DNA of 64,000 nucleotides, taken from Bradymonadales bacterium (lineage in GTDB: Bacteria; Bdellovibrionota; UBA2394). Each line of letters starts with the position of its first letter. Position 1 is the first letter of the stretch. The position numbers are program-made. The DNA lies in NCBI GenBank assembly GCA_007693605.1, contig REDG01000035.1, forward strand, positions 1 to 64,000. The letters are read 5' to 3'. Shown in pieces: positions 39,001 through 42,000 of the stretch.

Positions 39001-42000
39001 GCCGACACCTTTCGAAAGGCGGCGGTAGAGCAGCTTCAACGAGCCTGCGATCGTCATCAGATACCATGCTTTCAGGTGGTTCGAGAAGGAAGCACCGAGG
39101 GGGCCGATCCGGCCTCCGTTGTTTTCGACGGCCTAAAAAAGTTTCGAGAAGTCGATATCGTGTTGGTCGATACCAGCGGGCGGCTTCATAATAAAAAGAA
39201 CCTGATGGAAGAGTTAAAAAAGATGCAGAGGGTCGCCGAAAAGGCCTTGAACTCACCGCCTCAAGAGAAGCTTTTGGTGATTGATGCCTCTTTGGGGCAG
39301 AACGCGGTGCAGCAAGCTGAAAGTTTTCATGAAGCGGTGGGGGTCACGGGGATCATGTTGACCAAGCTAGATGGTTTGAGTCGGGGCGGCAGTGTTTTTC
39401 AGATGGTTCAGAGTCTGAGAATTCCCGTTCGATTTCTCGGAACCGGGGAGTCGGTTGAAGATCTGAGGGAATTTCGGGCAGATGAATTTGTCGATGAAAT
39501 GTTTGACCAGACTGGCACTTAATACTAAGGCTTGAAACCAGTTTGTCGTAATCAAGGAACTACCAGAGGAGATAGAGAGAAATGTCAGATAGCTTAATTA
39601 TTCAATCGAAGATACGGGATGTATTTAAAGAGGCGGGATGCAACACAGGAAGTGATGCGATTGATTCCCTTAATCAAGAGGTGGCTCGAATTGTGAAGCG
39701 CGCAGTCGAGAGAACAAAGGAGAACGGTCGAAAAACCGTAAAATCTTCAGATATTTAGCCCATTTTCGCTAAATTTTTCCGAAAACGAGTATAAAAAAAG
39801 GGCCTCCCAAAGGAGGCCCTTTTTGCAAACCCAAGAAGAGAGCTTACTTTCTCTTTTTCTTAGTAGCTTTTCGCTTGGTTGCTTTTCGCTTAGAAGCTTT
39901 TCGCTTCGTTGCTTTCTTCTTAGTAGCTTTTTTCTTAGTAGCTTTTCTTTTTCTTCTAGCGGCCATGTTTTCTCCTTCGTCGATTTTGAATTAGGTCAGG
40001 GGCTTTGTCCTCAAGTAACGAAGAGGATAAATCCACTGATCCAATTCTGTTTATCAAGAATCGAAAAACAACAACAGCGTTTTTCTGCTCTTGACACTTA
40101 CTAACATTTTAAAATGTTTTTCTTTTGTTGCAATACCTATTTCTTAATTCTCTGCGAATTTTGCAAAAAAATTGCCTCAAAGTTTCAATTCGGACATGAA
40201 ACAAAGTCTATTGAGTACATTCTCGTGCAGCTTATCGGATTTCGATTCTTCGATCGGGATTGTTTCGACTAGTTCGGCGAGCTTTTGGCTTGGGCAAGCT
40301 TCTCATGACTTCGATCGATTGCTGAAAGTTTCGAGGCAGTTGCCGCATGTTTGCCGGAGTTGGGGAAAAGTAAATGCTCTCACCGCTCTCTAGTGTGAGT
40401 TCGATGTATTGATCGGTAGTTTGAGAGATCGAACGAACCTCTTGAGGTCGAAACCGCTGTCCGGCCACTTCATACTCCTGTTGAATCTGCGCTCTTTTGC
40501 CCTCTTGGATTTCTTTTGACACATATTGAACGCCCAAAAAGAGGTTGAGAACGAGTAGAGCGACCAAGGCGCCAAACTTCTGAAATCGCTCCCGTCGGCT
40601 CTGGGCCTGCTCCCACTTCAACAGGCGGATCTCCTCTAAGCGATCGATGCTGGCCTGTTTCGTCTTGGCTTGAACCGCGACGCCAGACGGCAGTGCCGAG
40701 CGAACAAAAGACTCTAAGCGCGACCGAATGTCTTGAGTGAGGTTCACAAACTCTACCCCAAGTCCATTAGGAGCGACCCGACACACCCGAGCCTTCAGTT
40801 GAAAGTCAAAGCTTTCTCCATTTGCCGGATTCGGAACGCTGAAATGAATGCCGATGAGTTCGCCCACCCGCCTCTTCTCGTCAGTTTTGACAAAAAGGCC
40901 CCCTAAAGAGATGTTCTCAATATAGTGCTTGGCGAATTGTGCATCGTGCGAAAAACGAAGGCTAATCTCGTTCTTTCTAAGCCCGGCCCGTGAAAAGCTT
41001 CTTCGCTCGTCCGGACTGGGATGTTCAGGCTGTGTGTCTGAATCTAAAGACTGCGCCTTCGAATCTGCTTCAGCCGTTGATGGCTCTGACTTGTCGGTCC
41101 CTTCCGTATCGAAGAGGCTTTCAATTCGGTCTTTAAAATCCATGAAATCCCCGCACTCCAAACTTCAGTTTACCAAATTCCCTGAATTTTCGGGCCTCTA
41201 GCTCAAATGAGAATGATCTGGCCCCCTGAATCCGAAAGAGCGGAACTAAGTGACTAAAATCACTGCTTTTCTAAAGGGCTCTCCTCAAGATAAAAGAGAA
41301 GGATGTTGAAGAGATTTTGGATTTGGATGCCCCTTTTATTATGTTTCTCCATCGGTTCAGCCGAGGCCTTCTCTGGATCGGTGGGATTTCATGTGAACCA
41401 AAGGGCATTCAATGATGAACGATTTGGGTCTATGAATGGCTTTTCTGATTTTAAGCCTGAGTTTGAGCTGAGGTTTGGGCTTCACGAGTTTTATCCTCGC
41501 ATTGAACCCTTGCTTTCGGTGGCCTATCAGAAGAATTCGGCCACGGCCTGTGCAGTCGAGGCAGACGGCTTTACCTGTCTCCCGGCCGACCAGCAGGTCG
41601 GAAATCAAGATCGTTTTGAGTACAAGATTCTTAGTTTGGGAACTGGGGCTCAGTGGAAGGCCTGGGAGCCTGATTATTTTCCGATCATCCCGACCAGCTT
41701 TGTTCAGGTGGTCTATCGTCGAGTGTGGATTGAAAAGGTGGGGGCGGCAGCCGATGAGCTTGGCAAGGCCAAAGGAGGTGACTTGGGTTTTGACTTCGGC
41801 GGAGGTGTGCTCATTTCTTTTATGTATGACCAGCGGCGAAAGTCAGAGATGTCTTCAGAGTGGGGAGTCAAAGATTTTGGTTTGCAGATTCAGGCCCGCT
41901 ATATTCTGGCCGGTCTTTTGAAATCCGGCATGGCGGGCGTCACAGGCACCGGCGGCTGGAGCTTGGGTGTCGGACTTTTGGTCGATTGGTGACTTCCGGT

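Follow-up and report, generated by a model that had tools for sequence, protein, structure and literature searches.

Does a short, uncalled reading frame lying tail-to-tail with a bacterial histone gene represent a real gene and, if so, does its product serve that histone or act by itself? The question was raised by a first-pass annotation of a 64,000-nt stretch of DNA from a Bradymonadales bacterium (contig REDG01000035.1; the window hereafter), which had proposed that an H1- or protamine-like micropeptide condenses DNA together with a tailless histone, as a histone tail supplied in trans. Neither the peptide class nor a histone-peptide pair was found described in the literature, in a search that was thin on subscription journals. 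In the part of PMC10627809 that was available, the terms 'protamine' and 'operon' do not occur. Moreover, trypsin would cut the peptide into pieces of at most 4 residues, so it would be invisible to the LysC/trypsin nucleoid proteomics of that study (PMC10627809).

Anatomy of the micropeptide locus

The ORF occupies positions 39844..39966 on the minus strand and comprises 40 codons, of which 18 encode lysine and 7 arginine (62.5%), in agreement with the 62% first noted. The product (~4.7 kDa, pI ~12) consists of KKAT/KRKAT repeats, its residues other than Lys and Arg being only M, A, T and S, and the frame ends 85 nt from the histone stop. Its own Shine-Dalgarno (SD) sequence was also confirmed (AAGGAG, 39972-39977), within a conserved block, TCGACGAAGGAG, at 39972..39983 on the minus strand. 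Among 24,400 short ATG ORFs of the source genome (G000), 18 had at least 50% Lys/Arg, and the one in the window was the only one of these to have an SD as well, so it is not a product of chance. An assembly made separately from what is probably the source run contains the same ORF without differences, which is a non-independent confirmation.

A sigma-70-type promoter (TTGCAA, 16 nt, TAAAAT) was predicted at 40106..40133 on the minus strand, giving a leader of ~130 nt, and a PilZ-domain gene lies upstream of it (40232..41161, minus strand). The motif preceded the peptide ORF with the same spacing at 13 of 14 family loci, some of them near-identical to each other, for an expectation of 0.0024 per 260 nt, the exception being L233. 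Leaders at the family peptide loci ranged from 55 to 171 nt with differing folds, and their 3′ end was the conserved block over the SD. A leader hairpin with conserved internal loops (39988..40047, minus strand) was common to 2 of the 13 other family genomes and to two metagenome loci, and 2 of its 23 pairs were altered on both sides (RNAalifold). This hairpin (in the window, L433, L434, L233 and L234) occurred once per genome, in 3 of the 14 genomes of the family, and matched nothing among the Rfam families; it is a possible protein-binding site. Across 12 peptide loci, Rfam returned 43 weak matches, mostly terminator look-alikes, with none at the gathering score.

Between the histone and peptide genes, a bidirectional intrinsic terminator was predicted (39793..39824, both strands), whose GC-rich hairpin (39800-39819) lies between an A tract and a T tract and thus has a T tract for either direction. 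The folding z-scores of the hairpin were −5.0 for one strand and −5.3 for the other, none of 200 shuffles being as good in either case, which upheld the shared terminator proposed at first; it is absent from the list of a simple terminator scan. In two metatranscriptomes of the same study, no reads were found for 38401-41400, with ~6% of each dataset sampled. Taken together, the promoter, SD and terminator, along with the mostly synonymous change and the avoidance of A-runs described below, suggest that 39844-39966 behaves as a real stand-alone gene with predicted expression, and the near-consensus promoter and SD point to a peptide that is probably produced and abundant.

Selection on the peptide sequence

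All the codon statistics are inflated by related genomes, since kin are not independent: in the 9 C-terminal codons of 10 family peptides, 142 pairwise differences were synonymous versus 53 non-synonymous, with 164 differences at codon position 3 versus 36 + 36 at the other positions; the longest A-run averaged 5.47 over 114 genes versus 6.77±0.15 with shuffled Lys codons; and the in-frame slippery heptamer A_AAA_AAR was observed 54 times in 104 genes versus 119±8. All 10 family peptides remained in frame despite a length varying from 17 to 40 aa. Avoidance was far weaker in the ordinary genes of G000, where AAA-AAA was observed 357 times versus 388 expected. As iterated AAA makes ribosomes slide (PMC4363877), the avoidance of A-runs suggests selection for the peptide product, although slippage during transcription or replication might account for it as well. 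Outside the family, the conservation of both peptide ends is by construction, as these are fixed in the search patterns.

Distribution of the peptide class

The phylum is probably Bdellovibrionota, judging by loci assigned to it that share these peptides and neighbours (L113, L179, L063). A strict peptide pattern was found in 36 of 400 genomes of the phylum, belonging to six families, with no matches for the reversed control, while a looser one was found in 21 of 120 genomes, one match being a 301-aa protein; these counts are lower bounds, both patterns missing even the 40-mer of the window. The peptide had been regarded as limited to its class, which does not hold given these six families and the many phyla and archaea described below. 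Versions of 26-27 aa occurred in genomes titled Bdellovibrio sp. (L119, L143), which makes the question testable in a tractable and harmless genus. Regarding genomic context, the peptide gene was tail-to-tail with pyrD at 22 of 40 phylum loci from several families, so that pyrD is a wider fixed neighbour than the histone, a pairing that has no obvious bearing on chromatin. One Bdellovibrionota site, flanked by clpA and a MiaB-type gene, contained ORFs of 20, 61 and 98 aa (L090, L221 and L230, with the downstream gene inverted in L090), which, judging by these sequences, would link the micro-forms to Hc2-sized proteins; such a free repeat number suits a non-specific polycation. The absence of the class from the largest family, f10, to which the short patterns pointed (0/100 and 0/16), was rejected, as longer forms are present there. 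In particular, f10 genomes G022, G157 and G212 (L217, L220, L223, L227, L229) contained several long tracts of KKAT/KKVA repeats, which either stand alone or are fused to other proteins (by sequence reading, a fumarate-hydratase-like enzyme and a SWIB-like domain).

Furthermore, a scan of GTDB yielded at least 120 loci, with ~3,100 matching stretches estimated from 3 of its 64 parts. Among the matches listed, 104 of 120 were ORFs in frame, 13-30 aa long and with a Lys/Arg content of 45% or more (62% K, 26% A and 0.8% R), the other 16 being dropped and a few of those kept being doubtful. Also among these, an SD (loose motif) was detected in 78 of 104 versus 216 of 1347 controls, and a terminator in 59 of 101 versus 3 of 122. 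The record titles of the listed matches included Acidobacteriota, Planctomycetota, Gemmatimonadota, Verrucomicrobiota, Bacteroidota, Chloroflexota, Alpha-, Beta- and Gammaproteobacteria, Nitrospira, Patescibacteria and several archaea, a cross-phylum likeness in composition that may be convergent rather than homologous. One Methylomirabilota record (L125:1501-1660) presented tandem identical 16-aa Lys-rich ORFs, each with an SD. Peptides also appeared in three records titled Bifidobacterium (L084, L110, L115); in L084 and L115 they are similar to what is found at two Verrucomicrobia loci (L075, L134), so the titles may be mislabelled.

At the protein level, none of 9 peptides had an exact match in a collection of 15 billion proteins, in which the window histone was present. 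A homology search with the 40-mer, a low-complexity query, gave four candidates, all with E above 1, and the window peptide matched no Pfam, NCBIfam or PHROG entry and no PDB chain at E up to 10. With respect to viruses, ~340 stretches of IMG/VR matched, and 69 of 120 (L313-L432) contained short Lys-rich frames; 14 viral ORFs were stand-alone with an SD, several adjoining exonuclease or GroES-like genes, and many other matches were the C-termini of longer Met/Gly/Lys-rich phage proteins.

Possible ligands of the peptide

The preferred reading, to which a probability of about 0.5 was assigned, is that of a minimal polycation resembling an H1 tail, which by analogy would condense DNA with no need of a histone. 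The gene, small and autonomous, with a conserved promoter, a ribosome-binding site and a terminator of its own, would encode a Lys-rich and likely unstructured peptide that neutralises phosphate backbones as a disordered polycation and covers and compacts DNA through nothing but its charge, in the manner of a histone-H1 tail set free; the gene would stay beside the histone through inherited gene order only. The peptide may well be stable, considering that Ala follows Met and that the C-terminus is charged, features relevant to the N-end rule of bacteria and to C-terminal degrons. DNA is favoured as the main ligand because the nearest studied analogues, the tails of AlgP and MDP1, bind or compact it: KPAA-repeat peptides bind DNA in vitro (PMC9239181), and the MDP1 tail drives compaction (PMC5974015). 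On the other hand, a polycation would bind RNA, ribosomes or polyphosphate as readily, a choice that the sequence cannot make, and the 103 ORFs neighbouring the listed GTDB loci presented no family common beyond the lineage level and no chromatin theme.

RNA is a markedly less probable ligand, which the peptide would bind either as a small ribosome-associated protein of the eL41/bS22/bTHX kind or as a general RNA chaperone. Its size and charge match those of tiny basic ribosomal proteins, the promoter is of a housekeeping type, the conserved block covering the SD and the leader hairpin could be an autoregulation site, and two Bacteroidota loci follow rpmA. However, a length of 13-98 aa set by repeat number and the almost complete lack of hydrophobic or aromatic residues are unlike what a fixed ribosomal pocket would accommodate, the PDB search being equally negative, and most loci have no ribosomal-operon context, while many genomes have no pattern match. 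It is less likely still that the peptide is a general polyanion buffer, that is, an encoded polyamine substitute on polyphosphate granules or condensates, and not mainly a component of chromatin. In favour of this, the composition is nearly all charge, the KPAA tail of AlgP organises polyphosphate granules (PMC9239181), and in the small cells of Coxiella, polyamines may be replaced by small basic proteins (PMC4766238); against it, AlgP requires a folded N-terminal domain that the peptide does not have, and neither ppk nor polyamine genes were among the named neighbours.

Relationship to the neighbouring histone

The last reading to be weighed at the level of the peptide, that of a dedicated partner providing the histone with a basic tail in trans, begins with the histone itself (39582..39758, plus strand), which is tailless, 58 aa long and has a net charge of +2. 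It had been labelled as a Bd0055-type histone, an assignment that had to be replaced by the face-to-face (FtF), HLp-like type. In FtF histones, tetramer contacts are made by a conserved Arg and Asn, the RxTxxxxD motif is present and the chain ends one residue after this D, while bacterial dimer histones of the Bd0055/HBb type are without the FtF Arg and Asn (PMC11390915). The window histone has K10, R44, N48, R50, T52 and D57, which include both diagnostic residues, and its chain ends at I58, one residue past D57; the type was assigned by these residues, the score margin over Bd0055 being small. The best match in sequence and fold was Leptospira HLp (PDB 9qt0; E 2.7e−8; TM 0.90 with a monomer model), whose interface residues R49, N53 and R55 correspond to R44, N48 and R50; its gene, too, is located close to smc (PMC12701072). 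The window histone differs from HLp in having no N-terminal tail.

A positively charged tail is present in most bacterial FtF histones (PMC11390915), whereas the histones of this family have none and a net charge of +0 to +2, which constitutes the strongest argument for a tail in trans. Moreover, the tails of related FtF histones begin with MAKKK as the peptides do. FtF-like histones with N-terminal Lys tails of 5-17 aa were observed at L017, L019-L023, L267, L272-L277, L279, L280, L282 and L288, many starting with MAKKK or MAKAK, with net charges of +6 to +11 compared to 0 to +2 in the tailless family histones. Such MAKKK tails may have originated by fusion or de novo, and a de novo origin of histone tails out of AT-rich DNA has been suggested (PMC10919886). 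Other chromatin genes were also recorded. A second tailless FtF paralogue, 64% identical (G000:C49:5441-5608, with L193-L195, L244 and L245), had no peptide beside it, as first stated; in L002, L244 and L245, it faces the gene of a sigma-54-type response regulator in convergent orientation. L268 encodes a 121-aa protein with apparently two histone folds in tandem, and the single HU/IHF-family gene found in G000 (a genome 90% complete) is at C30:67386-67658, 27 kb from the smc-histone-peptide block, with which it shares the contig.

Gene order was then considered within the family, where the whole block formed by smc (34794..38288, plus strand; SMC_N match), ftsY (38419..39522, plus strand; SRP54 match), the histone, the peptide and the PilZ-domain gene is conserved, so that the histone-peptide junction is not special. 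The original family count was reproduced at 10 other orthologous loci, located through the histone and not through the peptide pattern: 8 had a full peptide of 17-31 aa beside the histone, and L011 was cut by a contig end. The remaining relative had been reported to have none, and L007 indeed shows none within 1.5 kb, yet its genome (G008) encodes the peptide at C11:46242-46298, ~1.7 kb from the histone and behind an inserted gene for a 414-aa helicase-like protein, presumably of the DEAD-box type by our reading of its motif. Of 11 family genomes with an assembled locus, 10 thus had the peptide next to the histone, counting the one cut by a contig end. A loss of the locus in three further family genomes was unsupported, as ftsY stops 118 nt from a contig end in G009 and no orthologue-level ftsY match exists in G006 and G011; these look like assembly gaps. 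Among 11 ftsY-linked metagenome loci, the peptide was complete and adjacent in 4 and appeared as a cut Lys run in 2; 1 contained the helicase insertion, 2 had other genes at that position and 2 were too short. Adjacency is one ancestral event, with breaks observed in three lineages (G008/L239, L237 and L241). In addition, the two genes are convergent and separately transcribed, with two terminators between them at 4 of 9 full loci (by eye).

Beyond this lineage, linkage was not observed. A histone profile found none in flanks of up to 1.5 kb at 41 phylum loci outside the family, a 42nd row being left aside as that of G008, no such peptide ORF appeared at 69 other metagenome histone loci, and no histone was beside the peptide at the 120 GTDB loci listed, 40 of them with only 300-nt flanks. 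The conserved pair that had been claimed consequently stands as synteny within the family and not outside it. A histone was encoded elsewhere, on another contig or 65 kb off, in 28 of 29 peptide-bearing phylum genomes, which speaks for a partnership. Among 50 non-Bdellovibrionota bacterial carriers hand-picked from the 104 listed ORFs (genome completeness not given), a 29-row profile detected a histone in 7 and none in 43, divergent types possibly being missed. This rate exceeds the bacterial base rate, though 5 of the 7 were Planctomycetota, and the carriers with no detectable histone argue against co-occurrence. Nor were tail and peptide complementary, as G060 and G040, in a small sample, carry both a tailed histone and the peptide, whereas none was seen in G046 and G054; because of the former two genomes, the idea that tailed histones replace the peptide was ruled out.

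The histone tail in trans was accordingly not borne out, considering the peptide's own promoter, the lack of linkage outside the family and the carriers in which no histone was detected, and a dedicated partnership is now improbable. The pairing, which would matter only if the case for a tail in trans survived, something the comparative data make unlikely, is family-level synteny. The peptide is likely an independent, nucleic-acid-condensing one, and the two proteins may share a nucleoid as their target without forming a partnership. We also hold little hope for the boldest version, in which a free Lys-rich 'histone tail', 13-40 residues long, would be made by thousands of prokaryotes and be a main constituent of chromatin that has gone unrecognised, missed by gene callers and trypsin proteomics; it would serve the family's tailless FtF histone as a tail in trans, and fusion with such a gene would have given rise to the MAKKK tails of other FtF histones. 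Least likely of all, the function would reside in the RNA or in the act of translation, the ORF being incidental to a small RNA, an attenuator or a leader that senses Lys. This would suit the structured leader and locus L087, which precedes a gene for a PLP-dependent decarboxylase, possibly LysA, and was the one candidate for a co-directional amino-acid operon among the 103 neighbours scanned, but the downstream gene in the window is convergent and leaves nothing to attenuate, the leaders differ in length and fold, no Rfam match exceeded the gathering score in 12 loci, and selection acts at the amino-acid level.

Comparison with known basic proteins

Several groups of small basic proteins resemble the peptide in part. 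The ribosomal proteins eL41, bS22 and bTHX are of 25-40 aa, very basic and often missed by gene callers, but they have fixed lengths and Arg/hydrophobic patterns, as opposed to the variable length of this class, and no sequence match to them was found in Pfam, NCBIfam or PDB. A basic peptide from another study is taken by us to be bS22-like. It is 32 aa long and different from the one analysed here (PMC10585065). With respect to the protamine- or H1-like micropeptide originally envisaged, a real, uncalled gene for such a micropeptide was confirmed and DNA condensation is plausible by analogy. Protamines proper are characterized by Arg-dominated clusters, in contrast to the 18 Lys and 7 Arg of the window peptide and to the 62% K and 0.8% R of the class among the GTDB matches listed. 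ScvA of Coxiella has ~30 aa. Together with Hq1, it is likened here, by description, as a small basic DNA-binding protein of a condensed-nucleoid form (PMC4766238), from which the present gene differs in that ScvA and Hq1 are lineage-restricted and developmentally induced, whereas its promoter is of the sigma-70 type.

The closest resemblance was to the H1-like Lys/Ala proteins, namely Chlamydia Hc2 (PF07382), Bordetella BpH1 and the tails of Pseudomonas AlgP and mycobacterial MDP1/HupB. The nearest named Atlas clusters carried HC2 on 21-23% of their members (scores 0.87 and 0.93). By profile, the window peptide is not an HC2 member, neither it nor the 20-61-aa forms giving a match (gathering score, 40 bits), while the 98-aa form gave a weak one (10.9 bits, E 0.48). 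If the DNA role is true, prokaryotes would own a widespread minimal H1-like compactor. What the peptide has in common with these proteins is the short K/A/T repeats, a repeat part with no globular core and a variable repeat number; what sets it apart is that they have roughly 100-350 aa, while the peptide has 13-40 aa, stands alone and is spread over many phyla and archaea.
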